The notes under the pieces: generated by a model | What the model was told of the DNA's origin: nothing | What the model saw: the letters and a program-made list of their open reading frames with translations, nothing else | Database searches by the model: none | Shown: positions 37,949-49,474 of the stretch, one piece after another | How the letters are laid out: each line of letters starts with the position of its first letter | Numbering within the stretch: the first letter of the stretch is position 1 | NCBI GenBank assembly: GCA_004557245.1 | Contig: SFEL01000014.1 | Coordinates: 2,093-66,092 of the forward strand | DNA: 64,000 bases | Reading direction: 5' to 3' | Source of the DNA: Clostridiales bacterium | GTDB lineage: Bacteria > Bacillota > Clostridia > Christensenellales > CAG-138 | Position numbers and translations under genes: made by a program

Positions 37949-39019
37949 TCAGGATTTTTTATCCTGTATGTAACGATAGTCGTAGCGGTAGTCCACCTTT
38001 ATATCCACGCCGAATATATCCTTCATAAGGCTCTTCAGCGCCCTGGTGTCCAGCACGTAGAAGGAGGCGCCGTTATACGCCGTGCCGCTTATGTACTTGC
38101 CCTTGAGCGTATGCCGCACAAGGCTTTCCCCCGGCACGAGATCCATGCCGAACACCGCCAGCGCCGCTATCTGCTCCGCCGTAAGGTCGGTATAGATGTA
38201 ATCCTTTACGCTGAGGTATAATTTCGGTATGGAGGTCAGCCTGCTGCCCTCTTTGAGCTGGGTGAATATGGCGAAGAGCATACGCTGCTGCCTGTCAGCC
38301 CTGTCCACATCGGTGCCGTAGCCCTTGCGGGCGCGGCAGTAGTCCAGCACCTGCTGTCCGTCCAGCCTTTGCACCCCTTTGTGCAGCACCCGGCCGTTGA
38401 GCTTTATCTCCCGGTCCACATCGTATTCCACGCCGCCCAGGGCGTTCACCACGGCCTTCAGCCCCTCCATGTTCACCCCTACATAGTGGGATATGGGCAC
38501 CCCCATGAGGTTTTCCACGGTCTTTATGGCGTATTCGAAGCCGTCGCCCTCGGCGCTGCCCCCCTTGGCAAAGGCTGCGTTTATCTTGTAATGCCCCTTT
38601 GTGTTGTATATCTTGGCCATGGTATCCCGGGGAATGGATATGAGGTGGGCGTTGCCCTGCTCAAAATCCACCGCCAGCAGCATCAGCACGTCGCTGCGGA
38701 AGTTGTTTTTGCTGTCCCGGTACATCACGCTGTCGCTGTCGTCCCGCTCCGGGCTCTGATCCCAGCCTACCAGCAGTATGTTTACCCTGCTGCGCATGAA
38801 ATCCGTATCGGCCTGCCGCAAAAGCTGCTCCTCGGGGCTGAGGGTAGGGGAAGGCAGGGGCTGCCCCGCCTGCAAAGGCGAGGGAGAGGGGGACGGCTCG
38901 GTAAAGGCGCGCATGGGGTCCCGGGCAATGCCGCTGTAAAACCTCAGCCCCAGGGCCACGCCGCCGCCCAGCAGCAGCAGCGCCCCGCACAGCAGAGCGT
39001 ATTTCAGCCTTTTTTTCAT
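37949..39019 (-). CDS. LCP family (LytR-CpsA-Psr) cell-envelope phosphotransferase
   Basis: N-terminal TM segment. LCP core NILLVGWD..SDVLMLLAVD..ISIPRD. Confidence 0.88.
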   Translation of the reverse strand: MKKRLKYALLCGALLLLGGGVALGLRFYSGIARDPMRAFTEPSPSPSPLQAGQPLPSPTLSPEEQLLRQADTDFMRSRVNILLVGWDQSPERDDSDSVMYRDSKNNFRSDVLMLLAVDFEQGNAHLISIPRDTMAKIYNTKGHYKINAAFAKGGSAEGDGFEYAIKTVENLMGVPISHYVGVNMEGLKAVVNALGGVEYDVDREIKLNGRVLHKGVQRLDGQQVLDYCRARKGYGTDVDRADRQQRMLFAIFTQLKEGSRLTSIPKLYLSVKDYIYTDLTAEQIAALAVFGMDLVPGESLVRHTLKGKYISGTAYNGASFYVLDTRALKSLMKDIFGVDIKVDYRYDYRYIQDKKS

Positions 39020-39110
39020 ATAATGAAGCCACCTCCCCTAAAAAGCGTCCTTACCTGTACAGTTTTCCTTAAAAGCGGGGAGGATTATTCATAAAAATAC
39101 CGCCCGCTCA

Positions 39111-39139
39111 TTGACATGAACGGGCGGCATGGGTATAAT
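39111..39139 (+). promoter_or_regulatory. Consensus sigma-A promoter (TTGACA-17 nt-TATAAT) for candidate antisense sRNA A
   Basis: TTGACA lies at 39111-39116 and TATAAT at 39134-39139. The -35 sits in the loop of the CCGCCCG/CGGGCGG hairpin. Confidence 0.6.
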
Positions 39140-39145
39140 GACAGT

Positions 39146-39233
39146 AGGGTAAGACCTAAACGGTCAGCCACATCACAGTATTAGTTTTCCAAAAGGAAAA
39201 ACCGCTCTGGTTGCAGCAGGGCGGTTATTTTTT
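39146..39233 (+). ncRNA. Candidate cis-antisense sRNA A (putative antitoxin RNA)
   Basis: It starts about 7 nt after the TATAAT and ends at the intrinsic terminator ACCGCTCTGG..CAGGGCGGTTATTTTTT. The U-tract is complementary to the last codons of ORF A. Confidence 0.5.
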
Positions 39234-39302
39234 CCTTATGGTGATAGTCACCGATTTTACCTCGCGCAAAAGCGCGAAAAGAATAACCAGTAATTTCATC
39301 AT
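39225..39302 (-). CDS. 25-aa hydrophobic/basic peptide MMKLLVILFALLREVKSVTITIRKK (putative type I toxin A)
   Basis: GGAGG SD 7 nt upstream, sequestered in the CACACTCTCC-GAAA-GGAGGTGTG hairpin. The frame is conserved in copy B despite 15 changed codons. Confidence 0.5.
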   Translation of the reverse strand: MMKLLVILFALLREVKSVTITIRKK

Positions 39303-39366
39303 AGGCCACACCTCCTTTCGGAGAGTGTGCTGACCGCCGCTTGCCCTATGCATTATACTTGAAAAT

Positions 39367-39396
39367 ATTATAGCGCAACTGTCTTAATTTGTCGAA
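39367..39396 (-). promoter_or_regulatory. Promoter for small ORF A (TCGACA-17 nt-TATAAT), overlapped by a TGTCGAA Spo0A-box-like heptamer
   Basis: On the minus strand the -35 lies at 39395-39390 and the -10 at 39372-39367. Plus-strand TGTCGAA lies at 39390-39396. Confidence 0.5.
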
Positions 39397-39417
39397 TAAA
39401 AAAATACCGCCCGCTCA

Positions 39418-39446
39418 TTGACATGAACGGGCAGCATGGGTATAAT
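39418..39446 (+). promoter_or_regulatory. Consensus sigma-A promoter (TTGACA-17 nt-TATAAT) for candidate antisense sRNA B
   Basis: TTGACA lies at 39418-39423 and TATAAT at 39441-39446. Confidence 0.6.
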
Positions 39447-39452
39447 AACAGT

Positions 39453-39540
39453 AGGGTAAGACCTAAACGGTCAGCCGTCCTTAAAGTTTTATTCCCTTAC
39501 GGGAACTACCGCTCTGATGTCAGCAGGGCGGTTATTTTTT
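39453..39540 (+). ncRNA. Candidate cis-antisense sRNA B (putative antitoxin RNA)
   Basis: Same architecture as sRNA A. The central hairpin has a different sequence but the same fold (TTCCC-ttac-GGGAA). Confidence 0.5.
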
Positions 39541-39609
39541 GCGAATGGTGATTGTCACCGACTTTATATCGCTTAACCAAGCAATAATGAAAGCCAATAA
39601 TTTCATCAT
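39532..39609 (-). CDS. 25-aa peptide MMKLLAFIIAWLSDIKSVTITIRKK (putative type I toxin B)
   Basis: Same length and frame as ORF A, with an identical KSVTITIRKK tail encoded by partly synonymous codons. The SD is hairpin-sequestered. Confidence 0.5.
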   Translation of the reverse strand: MMKLLAFIIAWLSDIKSVTITIRKK

Positions 39610-39673
39610 AAGCCACACCTCCTTTCGGATGGTGTGCTGACCGCCGCTTGCCCTGTGTATTATACTTGAAAAT

Positions 39674-39703
39674 ATTATAGCGCAACTGTCTTAATTTGTC
39701 GAA
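39674..39703 (-). promoter_or_regulatory. Promoter for small ORF B (TCGACA-17 nt-TATAAT) with an overlapping TGTCGAA heptamer
   Basis: On the minus strand the -35 lies at 39702-39697 and the -10 at 39679-39674. Confidence 0.5.
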
Positions 39704-39710
39704 TAAAAAA

Positions 39711-39898
39711 CTTCTTGACCCCCCACGGGGGTTGATAAGGGGTCGCAGCCCCTTATTTTCAATCCGGCTTTGGCGACATGCGCGTCAAAACGGATGAAAA
39801 GCTGCGCTTTTCCTTCCCTGCATCCTATGCTGGCCGCGCCGCAGGCGCAAGCAGAGGATGAAAAAACGTCGCAAAAGCGAAGTTTTCGCTTTTACGAA
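39711..39898 (+). repeat. Multi-hairpin intergenic repeat element, copy 3 (subtype b)
   Basis: It shares the 5' modules (GGTTGATAAGGGGTCGCAGCCCCTTAT; TTTGGCGACATGCGCGTCAAA) with all copies and the central module (TGCTGGCCGCGCCGCAGGCGCAAGCA) with copy 5. The 3' hairpin is a variant (CGCAAAAGCGAA-gttt-TCGCTTTTACG). Confidence 0.8.
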
Positions 39899-40072: not shown

Positions 40073-41056
40073 ATGAAGAAGATTTTTGCAATCGCTCTGG
40101 CTCTGGTCATGGTTCTCTCCATGGCTTCCGCCTTTGCATCCGCTTGCGTAACCGGCCCCTTCAACTGGTCGGCTACTGCTACTGCTGCTAACTGCGGCAA
40201 GGGTAAGGTAGAGGTTGTTCCTTTTGTTAAGGTCAACGACGGCTGCGGCAACTATGTATGGCAGGAGAACAACTGCGCCGCCGCTATCAACTCCGAGAAC
40301 GTTTACTATGCCGTTAAGCTCACCGTTGAGCCCAAGGCTGATAGGGAATGGTGGACAGCCGCTTCTCTGAAGATTGAACTCAAGGGTCTGACTGGCAAAG
40401 CAGGTACTACCGGTACTTGGAATAACCTCTATGGTTCTGCCGGCATCAAATGGGACGAAGAGGATGACACTCTGGTATACTACCTCAAGAATGACGTTAG
40501 CACTTGGGTAAAGGAATCCGATTGGAAAGATATGTCCACTAAGGATCAGGCCGCTTACATCTTCACTGCAAAGGTGACCGATGCTGGTAAGGCTAAGGTT
40601 TGCGCTACCCTGAAGTCCAAGCTGGCCGCATACACCCAGGGCGTACTTGGCAACTACTATGTAGTGGCTAATACTGCCAACCCGAACAACATGACCATTG
40701 AAGTCTACTCCAAGAAGACTGATGGCACGAAGGATAAGCTTCTGGTGAAGTACACCATCAAGGACGAGAAGGTCACTGGTATCGATTGGTCCAATCAGTG
40801 CGGTGCTGACGATTACAACACCATCAAGGCCTACTTCAACCTCGAGATCGGTACTCCTGTAAGCGCAAAGGCTATCAACGACAACTTCGGTTGGGACAAC
40901 AAGGTCGAGTCCTGCTTCCAGTGGAGCAAGAACGGCGCTGCCATCACCAACCCCGAGTGCAAGATCGAGATCCCCAAGACCGGTGACGTATCCGTAGTTG
41001 CTTACGCTGTAATGGCTCTCGTAGCCGCTGCCGGCGCTATGGGTCTGAAGAAGTAA
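40073..41056 (+). CDS. Secreted, sortase-anchored cell-surface protein (IPKTG sorting signal), otherwise uncharacterized
   Basis: Signal peptide MKKIFAIALALVMVLSMASAFA. The C-terminus is IPKTGD, then a hydrophobic stretch VSVVAYAVMALVAAAGAMG, then LKK. No ATA Ile codons occur, unlike every neighbouring gene. Confidence 0.85.
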   Translation: MKKIFAIALALVMVLSMASAFASACVTGPFNWSATATAANCGKGKVEVVPFVKVNDGCGNYVWQENNCAAAINSENVYYAVKLTVEPKADREWWTAASLKIELKGLTGKAGTTGTWNNLYGSAGIKWDEEDDTLVYYLKNDVSTWVKESDWKDMSTKDQAAYIFTAKVTDAGKAKVCATLKSKLAAYTQGVLGNYYVVANTANPNNMTIEVYSKKTDGTKDKLLVKYTIKDEKVTGIDWSNQCGADDYNTIKAYFNLEIGTPVSAKAINDNFGWDNKVESCFQWSKNGAAITNPECKIEIPKTGDVSVVAYAVMALVAAAGAMGLKK

Positions 41057-41146: not shown

Positions 41147-41282
41147 GGCTGAAAGCGCTCCAAAGGAACGGGGGCGGCTGGTATAAGCTTCGACCACAGA
41201 GGAAGTTCCTCCCCGGGGCACGGGGAGGAACTGACCCGCTGCGGCGGGCCCTCAGCACACCATCCGAAAGGGGGTGTGAAGT

Positions 41283-41390
41283 ATGATTGAGTTGATTATC
41301 ATTCTTTTTGTTGCGCTGAAGCGTGAAATAAAGTCTGATACCCGTACCGTCTGCGTATGTCAATGCGTGGACGGTATTTTTACGCATTAA
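41283..41390 (+). CDS. 35-aa variant small ORF C (MIELIIILFVALKREIKSDTRTVCVCQCVDGIFTH), possibly degenerate
   Basis: The N-terminal 18 aa are homologous to ORFs A and B. The 3' part reads through what is a terminator/antisense-promoter hairpin in the other copies. Confidence 0.3.
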   Translation: MIELIIILFVALKREIKSDTRTVCVCQCVDGIFTH

Positions 41391-41546
41391 AACAGCTTTC
41401 AGCCGTATAAGCTGCAAGCGCTCTAAAGGAATGGGACAAGCCCGTATAAGCTGCGACCACAGAGGAAGTTCCGGCGCGGGAGACGCGCCGGAACTGACCC
41501 GCCTGCGGCGGGCCCTCAGCACACCATCCGAAAGGGGGTGTGAAGT

Positions 41547-41606
41547 ATGATTGAGTTGATTATCATTCTTTTTGTTGCGCTGAAGCGTGAAATAAAGTCT
41601 GTATAA
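41547..41606 (+). CDS. 19-aa variant small ORF D (MIELIIILFVALKREIKSV)
   Basis: Same 5' UTR hairpin (CACACC..GGTGTG around AAAGGGGG) and N-terminus as ORF C. The stop lies directly at the antisense promoter. Confidence 0.35.
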   Translation: MIELIIILFVALKREIKSV

Positions 41607-41608
41607 GT

Positions 41609-41637
41609 ATTATACCCATTCCCCCTTTCCGTGTCAA
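41609..41637 (-). promoter_or_regulatory. Consensus antisense promoter (TTGACA-17 nt-TATAAT) firing back across small ORF D
   Basis: On the minus strand TTGACA lies at 41637-41632 and TATAAT at 41614-41609. The -35 is in the loop of the CCCCCT..AGGGGGG hairpin. The cognate site in unit C has TTGACA-17-TATCAG. Confidence 0.5.
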
Positions 41638-41812
41638 CGGATAGGGGGGATTTTCTTAGTATCGGCCACAGAGGAAGTTCCGTCTGCGGGCGGTATTTTT
41701 TCCGCAATCAGAAATATTTCACCCCCCGTTCACCCTTTTCTGTGAAAAACAGGGTATAATAGACACGCATGGCATATATATGCCGTTAAATTAAAAAGGT
41801 CAGGAGATAAGC

Positions 41813-42427: not shown

Positions 42428-42620
42428 GGCTGTGGGAAAAGTCCCCGGGGTTGATAAGGGGTCGCAACCCCTTATATTCAATCCGGCTCTGACGGCGTGT
42501 ACGTCAGAACGGATGAAAACCGGAGGTTTTCGTACTCTGCGGGTTTTGCCGCCCGGGAGCGAATGCGAGAGGCAAAACGCGAAAAGAACTCGGAAAAGTG
42601 GTCTTTAGCCACTTTTCCGA
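42428..42620 (+). repeat. Multi-hairpin intergenic repeat element, copy 4 (subtype a)
   Basis: All five hairpin modules are present and the central part is nearly identical to copy 2. Confidence 0.85.
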
Positions 42621-49078: not shown

Positions 49079-49154
49079 GGGAGCATAGCTCAGCTGGGAG
49101 AGCACTTGCCTTACAAGCAAGGGGTCACAGGTTCGAGCCCTGTTGCTCCCACCA
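49079..49154 (+). tRNA. tRNA-Val (anticodon UAC)
   Basis: GGGAGCATAGCTCAGCTGGGAGAGCAC..CTTACAA anticodon loop..GGTTCGAGCCCTGTTGCTCCCACCA. The cloverleaf folds and CCA is encoded. Confidence 0.92.
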
Positions 49155-49157
49155 TTT

Positions 49158-49234
49158 GGTCCGGTAGTTCAGTTGGTTAGAATGCCAGCCTGTCACGCTG
49201 GAGGTCAGGGGTTCGAGCCCCCTCCGGATCGCCA
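49158..49234 (+). tRNA. tRNA-Asp (anticodon GUC)
   Basis: GGTCCGGTAGTTCAGTTGGTTAGAAT..CTGTCAC loop..GGTTCGAGCCCCCTCCGGATCGCCA. Confidence 0.92.
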
Positions 49235-49239
49235 TTGAT

Positions 49240-49315
49240 GCCTCGGTAGCTCAGTTGGTAGAGCAAGGGACTGAAAATCCCTGTGTCGGTGGTTCAAGTC
49301 CACTCTGAGGCACCA
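49240..49315 (+). tRNA. tRNA-Phe (anticodon GAA)
   Basis: GCCTCGGTAGCTCAGTTGGTAGAGC..CTGAAAA loop..GGTTCAAGTCCACTCTGAGGCACCA. Confidence 0.92.
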
Positions 49316-49320
49316 ATCCT

Positions 49321-49396
49321 GCGGGAATAGCTCATTTGGTAGAGCGCCGCCTTGCCAAGGCGGAGGTGGCGGGTTCGAGCCCCGTTTCCCGCTCCA
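49321..49396 (+). tRNA. tRNA-Gly (anticodon GCC)
   Basis: GCGGGAATAGCTCATTTGGTAGAGC..TTGCCAA loop..GGTTCGAGCCCCGTTTCCCGCTCCA. Confidence 0.92.
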
Positions 49397-49400
49397 CATC

Positions 49401-49474
49401 GGCACCATAGCCAAGCGGTAAGGCAGAGGTCTGCAAAACCTTCATCCCCGGTTCGATTCCGGGTGGTGCCTCCA
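49401..49474 (+). tRNA. tRNA-Cys (anticodon GCA)
   Basis: GGCACCATAGCCAAGCGGTAAGGC..CTGCAAA loop..GGTTCGATTCCGGGTGGTGCCTCCA. Confidence 0.92.

Follow-up and report, generated by a model that had tools for sequence, protein, structure and literature searches.

A type I toxin-antitoxin-like module family predicted in gut Oscillospiraceae and related Clostridia

What is the role of a pair of small repeated units, each carrying a 25-codon open reading frame (ORF) on one strand and a candidate small RNA (sRNA) gene on the other? Such a pair, units A and B, occupies positions 39093–39710 of a 64,000-nt stretch of a Clostridiales genome (assembly GCA_004557245.1, contig SFEL01000014.1, positions 2,093–66,092 of the forward strand), which was analysed at its full length and is called the window below. 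An earlier note, made from the sequence alone, had proposed that the two units have the architecture of toxin–antitoxin (TA) systems of type I. Our analysis led us to a similar view: a type I TA-like module is the best explanation of each unit, with a probability of about 0.6, and the units and their relatives are best described as a new type I TA-like family of two peptide subfamilies that is common among the Oscillospiraceae of the human gut and also occurs in related Clostridia.

Layout of the two units and the 25-codon ORF

The head-to-tail arrangement of the units was confirmed as a repeat with a period of 307 bp, in which 39093–39169 matches 39400–39476 (97%) and 39195–39403 matches 39502–39710 (86%). 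Identity between A and B is 100% in the mRNA promoter, 91% in the 5' untranslated region (UTR), 73% in the ORF, 100% at the sRNA 5' end, and 37% in the middle of the sRNA; the promoters and the sRNA 5' end, taken together, are 96–100% identical. A consensus scan of the module region gave 13 promoter-like sites (2.6 expected) and 16 terminator-like sites (3.7 expected), and recovered in each unit the two promoters named in the earlier note, TTGACA-17-TATAAT on the plus strand and TCGACA-17-TATAAT on the minus strand. The predicted parts of the units are listed below, where T1 is the terminator hairpin of the sRNA, T2 is the distal terminator of the mRNA, and SD stands for the Shine–Dalgarno sequence; the basis of each assignment is given in parentheses.

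Unit A
39090–39360, minus strand: predicted full-length mRNA of about 270 nt, running from a transcription start that follows the first TATAAT as far as the distal terminator's U-tract (promoter and terminator scan, fold)
39367–39395, minus strand: mRNA promoter, TCGACA-17-TATAAT, 11 of 12 consensus matches (promoter scan)
39330–39358, minus strand: 5' arm of the long-distance pairing, with a second TATAAT inside it that mirrors the sRNA −10 box (fold)
39307–39329, minus strand: SD-sequestering hairpin, CACACUCUCC-GAAA-GGAGGUGUG (pattern match, fold)
39225–39302, minus strand: ORF of 25 amino acids, MMKLLVILFALLREVKSVTITIRKK, stop codon included (ORF list, comparison)
39200–39226, no strand assigned: T1 hairpin, intrinsic terminator of the sRNA, with a U-tract on the mRNA strand as well (terminator scan)
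39146–39236, plus strand: predicted sRNA of about 90 nt, composed of a 5' hairpin, a variable middle hairpin, and the terminator (fold)
39111–39139, plus strand: sRNA promoter, TTGACA-17-TATAAT, 12 of 12 consensus matches (promoter scan)
39133–39169, minus strand: 3' arm of the long-distance pairing, complementary to the 5' end and −10 box of the sRNA (fold)
39097–39130, minus strand: T2, 15-bp stem (terminator scan, covariation)

Unit B
39397–39667, minus strand: predicted full-length mRNA (promoter and terminator scan, panhandle fold)
39674–39702, minus strand: mRNA promoter, TCGACA-17-TATAAT, 11 of 12 (promoter scan)
39637–39665, minus strand: 5' arm of the long-distance pairing (fold)
39614–39636, minus strand: SD-sequestering hairpin (pattern match, fold)
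39532–39609, minus strand: ORF of 25 amino acids, MMKLLAFIIAWLSDIKSVTITIRKK, stop codon included (ORF list, comparison)
39508–39532, plus strand: T1 hairpin, terminator of the sRNA, no U-tract on the mRNA strand (terminator scan)
39453–39543, plus strand: predicted sRNA of about 90 nt (fold)
39418–39446, plus strand: sRNA promoter, TTGACA-17-TATAAT, 12 of 12 (promoter scan)
39404–39437, minus strand: T2, 15-bp stem (terminator scan, covariation)

The SD sequence of each unit lies, as had been noticed, in a hairpin with a GAAA loop, CACACnnTCC-GAAA-GGAGGTGTG, at 39307–39329 and 39614–39636 on the minus strand. The hairpin has a 9-bp stem and a GNRA-type loop, and its pattern occurs four times in the window, where none is expected. 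We used this 23-nt hairpin alone, which carries no information on the ORF, as the query for the family, and the pattern scan returned 157 modules in gut metagenomes and Oscillospiraceae genomes. In nearly all of them an ATG-initiated ORF of 24–28 amino acids begins 0–5 nt past the hairpin; those without such an ORF are contig-end truncations, two deleted copies in the window, and one unrelated hit. Conservation of the frame in homologous copies elsewhere had been put forward as a check on the ORF, and nearly all modules preserve its frame together with the start and stop codons.

The peptides fall into two families. Family 1, to which A and B belong, follows the pattern M-x-(E/K)-L-hydrophobic(~9)-(K/R)-x-(D/E)-x-K-S-(I/V)-T-I-T-(I/V)-R-K-K, family 2 is represented by MPLTITWHWHGFTITIKVKRDNRHPAR and relatives, and a C-terminal TITI(K/R) strand is common to both. 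Between A and B, 15 of the 25 codons differ, with seven synonymous changes (AGG to CGC among them), eight non-synonymous ones, and neither a frameshift nor a stop, as the earlier note had counted. The wider comparison gives the same coding pattern: nucleotide diversity at codon positions 1, 2, and 3 is 0.33, 0.13, and 0.41 in family 1 and 0.15, 0.12, and 0.29 in family 2, and the pooled ratio of non-synonymous to synonymous polymorphism (pN/pS) is lowest among the six frames in the sense frame (0.43 and 0.35, respectively), compared with 0.82–2.07 and 1.23–1.50 in the shifted sense frames and 0.63–1.36 and 0.51–1.28 in the antisense frames. The N-terminal half remains hydrophobic despite many replacements. 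The C-terminus is the most conserved part of the peptide, and its S-I-T-I-T-I-R-K-K tail is conserved in amino acids and written in many and varied codons, so that the constraint acts on the amino acids; the terminal Lys codons are additionally constrained by the U-tract of the sRNA terminator on the opposite strand. The frame kept in nearly all of the hairpin-found modules and the substitution pattern support the claim that the ORF is translated, and they show its peptide to be under purifying selection. We consider it very probable, judging from these comparisons, that each module pairs a mini-gene that is conserved and translated with an antisense RNA gene convergent to it.

The strand opposite the ORF is also open, at 39211–39333 and 39539–39640 (plus strand) in the window and in 36 of 38 distinct family-1 sequences. 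This antisense frame was rejected as a coding frame at a family-1 pN/pS of 0.63 against 0.43 for the sense frame; it is probably a by-product, its openness resulting from third codon positions shared with the sense frame.

The antisense RNA and the fold-back of the mRNA

The convergent gene for a ~90-nt sRNA described in the earlier note has, at the sequence level, a promoter and a terminator that are invariant across more than 100 distinct copies. All of 112 distinct family-1 modules have TTGACA-17-TATAAT as the sRNA promoter, and their mRNA promoter always has TATAAT as its −10 box and TAGACA, TGGACA, or TCGACA, each one base away from consensus and never TTGACA, as its −35 box. This pattern is consistent with selection that keeps the antisense promoter the stronger of the two. 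The sRNA covers only the last two or three codons of the ORF, and the U-tract of its terminator is antisense to the last codons (Lys-Lys-stop in unit A), as had been stated. The middle hairpin, which was said to change in sequence and keep its fold, does so in the predicted folds of both sRNAs at 37% identity. The family-1 modules look mosaic, with ORF type, middle hairpin, and T2 type occurring in differing combinations.

How far the mRNA extends is indicated by the two terminators. On the sRNA strand, T1 is followed by six to eight U within 9 nt in 80 of 80 copies; on the mRNA strand, six T within 8 nt are found in only one of the 80 (the unit A type), and 69 have four or fewer. T2 shows double, compensatory changes in 11 of its 15 pairs, with 96% of cells paired and an invariant TTGACA in the loop. 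The sRNA −35 box was indeed located in and around this loop on the opposite strand, and since T2 lies upstream of the sRNA start, T2 can be formed as RNA only on the mRNA strand. The covariation of T2, together with a T1 U-tract that is essentially confined to the sRNA strand, suggests that the mRNA most likely reads through T1 to T2. Such an mRNA would be about 270 nt long and would span the whole sRNA complement. The two transcripts are thus predicted to converge, as the earlier note proposed, but the overlap it placed at the 3' end of the mRNA is replaced by an sRNA fully nested in the 3' UTR.

The nested position bears on the folding of the mRNA. Immediately before the SD hairpin, the 5' UTR contains a segment with complementarity to the part of the 3' region that directly precedes T2, and the repetition of this segment in the same sense at the sRNA 5' end was confirmed. 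The hok-like fold-back that the earlier note had raised as a possibility is independently predicted by minimum-free-energy folds of divergent subtypes and carries compensatory changes. The full mRNAs of A and B both fold into a closed panhandle (z = −8.05 and −6.66, respectively), as do four divergent family-2 subtypes, and the same panhandle is predicted for a copy in Vescimonas fastidiosa (z = −5.07), which was found via its peptide and not via the hairpin. In family 2, the two fold-back helices of 13 and 10 pairs show changes on both sides in five and two pairs, respectively, and are 89% and 97% paired, compared with 38–50% when the partner columns are slid. Cognate arms pair better than arms of other subtypes by 8–15 kcal/mol, and the wobbles in the fold-back and in T2 are G·U on the mRNA strand (A·C mismatches on the other strand). 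Taking the terminators and the folds together, the mRNA is likely to reach T2 and to form the fold-back.

The pairs of the SD hairpin all hold in 101 sequences, but the same hairpin served as the search pattern; independent variants come from the divergent Vescimonas copy and from neighbouring copies outside the exact pattern. Neighbours of the latter kind were seen in the fetched loci L108 (7897–8195), L084 (1635–1937), and L025 (1705–1968). In the CACAUUCUCC variant, present in seven copies, pairing is kept via a G·U wobble. Single copies with GGAUG, AGAGG, or a 1-nt deletion have a weakened SD or stem and may be decaying.

Two other modes of pairing were considered and set aside. Direct pairing of the sRNA at the SD, evaluated with RNAduplex against the mRNA 5' region, gave a long and sloppy interaction and was not used. 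Sequestration of the start codon in a short, T1-terminated mRNA of unit A was rejected, as the complementarity is absent from unit B.

Distribution of the family and likeness to known type I systems

The hairpin scan found 14 loci in species-representative genomes, whose carriers are metagenome-assembled genomes of uncultured Clostridia and Oscillospiraceae and also Flintibacter muris DSM 110149, and 104 loci in metagenomes, whose named sources, where stated, are human-gut assemblies. A profile of family 2 aligns to units A and B over almost the whole module (E = 1e-20), indicating a single module design for both families. When a family-2 peptide was used as a tblastn query, a further, more divergent copy came up in Vescimonas fastidiosa MM35, adjoining pnp at a place where no gene is listed. 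Convergent genes follow the family-2 copies. Family 1 is multi-copy and forms tandem arrays, and in contigs with a 100% identical LytR-CpsA-Psr (LCP) protein the number and orientation of the modules vary on both sides of a surface-protein gene. None of nine peptides of 24–27 amino acids was present in an exact look-up in a collection of 15 billion proteins, which held only a spurious 42-residue upstream extension of ORF A, and the peptide motifs were not found in the searchable literature, where the one match was unrelated.

Type I TA systems are defined by a short mRNA encoding a small protein and by an antisense RNA gene (PMC8594479). Against the usual ranges of ~20–60 amino acids and ~150–400 nt, the modules have peptides of 24–28 amino acids on a predicted mRNA of ~270 nt; they carry a complementary antisense RNA gene with its own promoter and terminator, as far as the sequence goes, and their structured mRNA is predicted in silico to block its own translation (folds with z = −5 to −8, covariation of the panhandle). 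The earlier note did not recognize the peptide as a known toxin, and likewise no family in Pfam, NCBIfam, PHROGs, or PADLOC matched at threshold; the PHROGs and PADLOC searches gave nothing significant. It called the peptide Ibs-like only in size and composition; a single peptide gave 11.7 bits with Pfam PF13956 (Ibs_toxin; E = 0.27) against a cutoff of 27, and in Ibs/Sib the antisense RNA spans the entire ORF, in contrast to the two or three codons covered here. At gathering thresholds, Rfam found only tRNAs in the window. Under permissive settings, its best match was the BsrG toxin mRNA (RF01412), covering the SD hairpin and ORF with 24.6 and 20.7 bits (E = 0.0037 and 0.043) in the two units, far short of the gathering score of 55; this is a resemblance in design, not membership.

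The likeness to the Bacillus subtilis systems bsrG/SR4, bsrE/SR5, and txpA/RatA consists in the Gram-positive host, the convergent antisense RNA of ~100 nt, its overlap with the mRNA 3' end and last codons, and an SD that is sequestered by a local hairpin directly before the start codon. The present modules differ in that their peptides are unrelated, with 24–28 residues of which at most about 10 are hydrophobic, compared with the 38-residue membrane peptide BsrG; in that the sRNA is nested in the mRNA 3' UTR and duplicates the mRNA 5' UTR arm with its own 5' end; and in that they have no prophage context. The second resemblance, one of mechanism only, is to hok/Sok of plasmid R1 and aapA1/IsoA1 of Helicobacter pylori, in which the full-length mRNA is closed by 5'–3' pairing and is inert, its SD sequestered (PMC5416894, PMC8594479); the corresponding panhandle is here predicted and covarying. 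In those Gram-negative systems, however, the antisense RNA binds the 5' region or the ORF of a 3'-processed mRNA, whereas the complementarity of the sRNA here is to the fold-back's own 3' arm, and the peptides (Hok, 50 residues; AapA1, 30 residues) are unrelated. Other traits of hok/Sok were looked for and not found in the modules: they have no Pfam match to Hok and no mok-like leader ORF, and their antisense RNA lies at the 3' side, not against the 5' leader. The predicted layout combines the 3'-overlapping antisense RNA of Gram-positive type I systems with the fold-back of hok and aapA1.

The modules share with par (fst/RNAII) of the Enterococcus faecalis plasmid pAD1 convergent transcripts around a shared terminator and repeats at both RNA 5' ends. 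The repeats of par are direct in DNA, giving RNA 5' ends that are complementary and pair with each other. Here, in contrast, the repeats are inverted in DNA, so that the two RNA 5' ends are identical in sequence and cannot pair; being same-sense, they would compete for the same 3' arm. T1, moreover, is bidirectional only in unit A. The type I modules of Clostridioides difficile (CD0956.2/RCd10 and others) resemble the present ones in consisting of a small ORF and a cis-antisense RNA, in being present more than once in a genome (PMC6563280), and in their host class, Clostridia, but their toxins are hydrophobic with charged tails, share no peptide sequence similarity with those here, and often lie within prophages or beside CRISPR arrays. 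YrzI/SpyT is a small toxic Bacillus peptide with tandem paralogues in some species (PMC12067863). A family-2 peptide matched it (NCBIfam TIGR02413) through an FTITIK-like strand, but not significantly (E = 0.11, 12.6 bits against a cutoff of 47.05), and what neutralises SpyT is Rae1 and a co-transcribed peptide rather than an antisense RNA.

From these comparisons the following mechanism can be proposed, in which a putative peptide toxin would, with somewhat better than even odds, be held in check by the sRNA. The panhandle and the SD hairpin would keep a stable mRNA translationally silent with both of its ends protected. The more strongly transcribed sRNA would invade the 3' UTR and displace the 5' arm, and the long, perfect sRNA–mRNA duplex would be cut by RNase III, leading to mRNA decay; this course of events is drawn by analogy with bsrG/SR4, bsrE/SR5, and txpA/RatA, whose 3'-overlapping antitoxin RNAs recruit RNase III (PMC5848175). 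Upon loss of the sRNA, surviving mRNA would be translated into a growth-inhibiting peptide.

Deleted copies, neighbouring elements, and the weighing of explanations

The inventory of two units in the earlier note holds for A and B and missed two further copies, C and D, whose SD hairpins lie at 41256 and 41520 on the plus strand.

41247–41390, plus strand: copy C, a rearranged module in which the SD hairpin and the 18 initial codons, MIELIIILFVALKREIKS, are preserved (nhmmer)
41506–41665, plus strand: copy D, internally deleted, with a truncated ORF of 19 amino acids, MIELIIILFVALKREIKSV, at 41548–41607 (nhmmer)

Both copies match the family profile only over the 5' UTR, the hairpin, and ~18 codons and again over the sRNA promoter and T2 (for copy C, profile positions 40–128 and 248–300 only), and such matches to the two ends indicate internal deletions. 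Both retain the sRNA promoter and T2 and are missing T1, the middle hairpin, all of the sRNA body, and the C-terminus of the peptide, and in both the upstream region is replaced by the CCACAGAGGAAGTTCC element described below. Copy D has an intact sRNA-type promoter, TTGACA-17-TATAAT, on the minus strand (41637–41609). The first 99 nt of C and D are 100% identical to each other, and an intact relative of their peptide, MIELIIILFVALKREIKSVTITVRKK, was found in metagenomes. C and D are decayed modules in which the sRNA body and the peptide C-terminus were lost together. Among all fetched loci, these two copies with truncated ORFs are the only modules that lack an sRNA body; a partial copy in L119, considered as a third sRNA-less module, turned out to be a scaffold gap of Ns and was dropped.

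A second repeat of ~130 nt accompanies the modules and consists of CCACAGAGGAAGTTCC, a G+C-rich hairpin, GGAACTGACC, and GCCTGCGGGCGG. It is present in the window at 41148–41250, 41411–41515, and 41644–41700 and 95 times in the fetched loci (e.g., L119 2720–2850 and L120 3501–3630). In tandem arrays it separates one module from the next, and some copies, C and D included, have it joined straight to the SD hairpin, where it forms an alternative 5' region; some of the fused copies keep intact ORFs (L029, L124).

The surface-protein locus lies at 40073–41056 (plus strand) and has modules on both flanks. The gene there encodes a protein of 327 amino acids that carries a signal peptide and, at its C-terminus, an IPKTGD motif plus a hydrophobic tail resembling a sortase anchor; the protein has no Pfam match. 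The locus is hypervariable: in strains with an identical LCP neighbour, the gene at this position encodes 319–420 amino acids. A 109-nt direct repeat without an Rfam match (39728–39836 and 42447–42555, 79% identity) encloses a segment with the surface-protein gene, a gene for thioredoxin, a Cys-rich ORF of 65 amino acids, and copies C and D. The LCP gene (37949–39019, minus strand) starts 78 nt past T2 of unit A in the same orientation, and no clear promoter belonging to this gene emerged from the consensus scan; part of its transcription could come from read-through out of the module. Solo T2-like hairpins with TTGACA and no other module parts were seen in L119 (5863–5923), L121, L124, and L125 and further in L017, L044, L069, L078, and others; the one in L119 carries TTGACA-17-TTTAAT and points at the LCP gene ~80 nt downstream. 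Remnants of modules may thus donate promoters or terminators to neighbouring genes. The tRNA genes of the window, a cluster of five at 49079–49471 (plus strand) and one more at 10973–11045 (minus strand), are ordinary.

Besides the RNA architecture, the type I TA-like reading draws support from selfish-element behaviour, as seen in the tandem arrays, the varying copy number and orientation, and the sRNA-less copies with truncated ORFs. Several observations weigh against it. The hydrophobic run of family 1 is 9–10 residues long and flanked by charged residues, as short as the earlier note had cautioned, and the family-2 peptide is polar and beta-strand-like and, unlike most type I toxins, has no hydrophobic segment. 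A transmembrane helix is typical of such toxins but not obligatory, and non-membrane type I toxins exist. The hairpin pattern has no match in viral contigs, and a blastn search with unit A found none in plasmids and phages, although addiction modules are frequent on such elements; the exception is a family-2 copy on an 861-kb Vescimonas replicon that carries housekeeping genes. In Flintibacter, family 2 is single-copy and sits among housekeeping genes, between scpAB and engB-lon. On the RNA side, the fold-back arms form an inverted DNA repeat, and gene conversion between the arms could mimic covariation. The family-2 copy at L051 1735–2047 (minus strand) is a chimera: its 5' half is of the L001 subtype, the L019 subtype accounts for its 3' half (the fold-back's 3' arm along with T2 and the promoter of the sRNA), and its 5'–3' pairing is partly broken. 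Finally, the SD hairpin persists in the predicted folds whether the sRNA site is occupied (forced single-stranded) or not, and the proposed mechanism therefore does not account for the on-switch of translation; nor do the folds give evidence that the sRNA alters translation directly.

The best surviving alternative is a real small-protein gene with a cis-antisense regulator whose peptide is physiological, for example a membrane-associated or protein-binding modulator, rather than toxic, with its level tuned by the sRNA. The structural evidence would fit such a gene equally well, and the lack of a full transmembrane segment, the polar family-2 peptide, its single-copy position in a conserved housekeeping neighbourhood, and the missing phage or plasmid link all speak for it. 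However, the multi-copy, tandem occurrence of family 1 and its variation between near-identical strains would be unusual for a housekeeping regulator; the translation locked by the SD hairpin and the panhandle, under an antisense promoter that is always the stronger one, bears the hallmarks of a gene kept off; and the ORFs of the sRNA-less copies are truncated. We regard a non-toxic peptide as possible but doubtful.

It is improbable that the ORF is a cis-acting leader or arrest peptide, or that the module is a portable promoter–terminator cassette for neighbours such as the LCP gene, with a functionless peptide. The position of that gene beyond unit A, the solo hairpin pointing at it in other strains, and a peptide most conserved at its C-terminus would be expected of such an element, but the orientation of the modules to the LCP gene flips between strains with an identical LCP protein, tandem units precede only another unit, convergent genes follow the family-2 copies, and the hydrophobic N-terminal half, which is maintained, would be needless for a purely cis-acting nascent peptide. 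A non-coding intergenic repeat resembling a repetitive extragenic palindrome or a miniature inverted-repeat transposable element, with incidental ORF and promoters, is already disfavoured and highly improbable, for although the unit is short, highly repeated, bounded by inverted repeats and hairpins, and arrayed with the CCACAGAGGAAGTTCC element, changes in the 157 modules concentrate at third codon positions of a kept reading frame, the two perfect or near-perfect sigma-70 promoters are invariant, and one module layout carries two differing peptide families.

Returning to the type I TA-like reading, a more speculative extension can be put forward tentatively as a joint proposal. The sRNA would mimic the 5' end of the mRNA and open the 5'–3' clamp by strand displacement, exposing both ends to RNases; the TITI(K/R) beta-strand peptides would be new toxins of a non-membrane (or beta-type) kind; and the module arrays with their CCACAGAGGAAGTTCC spacer would drive rearrangement of the hypervariable surface-protein locus. 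The logic of an sRNA that acts as a mimic of the mRNA 5' end is not known to have been described for any type I TA system.

In the literature searched, the type I TA systems described in Clostridia centre on C. difficile, and we found none described for Oscillospiraceae, a group common in the human gut. Gene calling passes over ORFs this short, which leaves the family invisible to annotation, and one exact 23-nt pattern sufficed to reveal more than 150 copies. The family has a well-defined RNA architecture that is backed by comparison in its SD hairpin, 5'–3' clamp, nested antisense RNA, and graded promoter strengths. If the proposed reading is true, the modules would provide a Gram-positive case in which fold-back control like that of hok goes together with a 3' antisense RNA, would add two very small and atypical peptide toxins, and would constitute a marker of hypervariable chromosomal loci in gut commensals.

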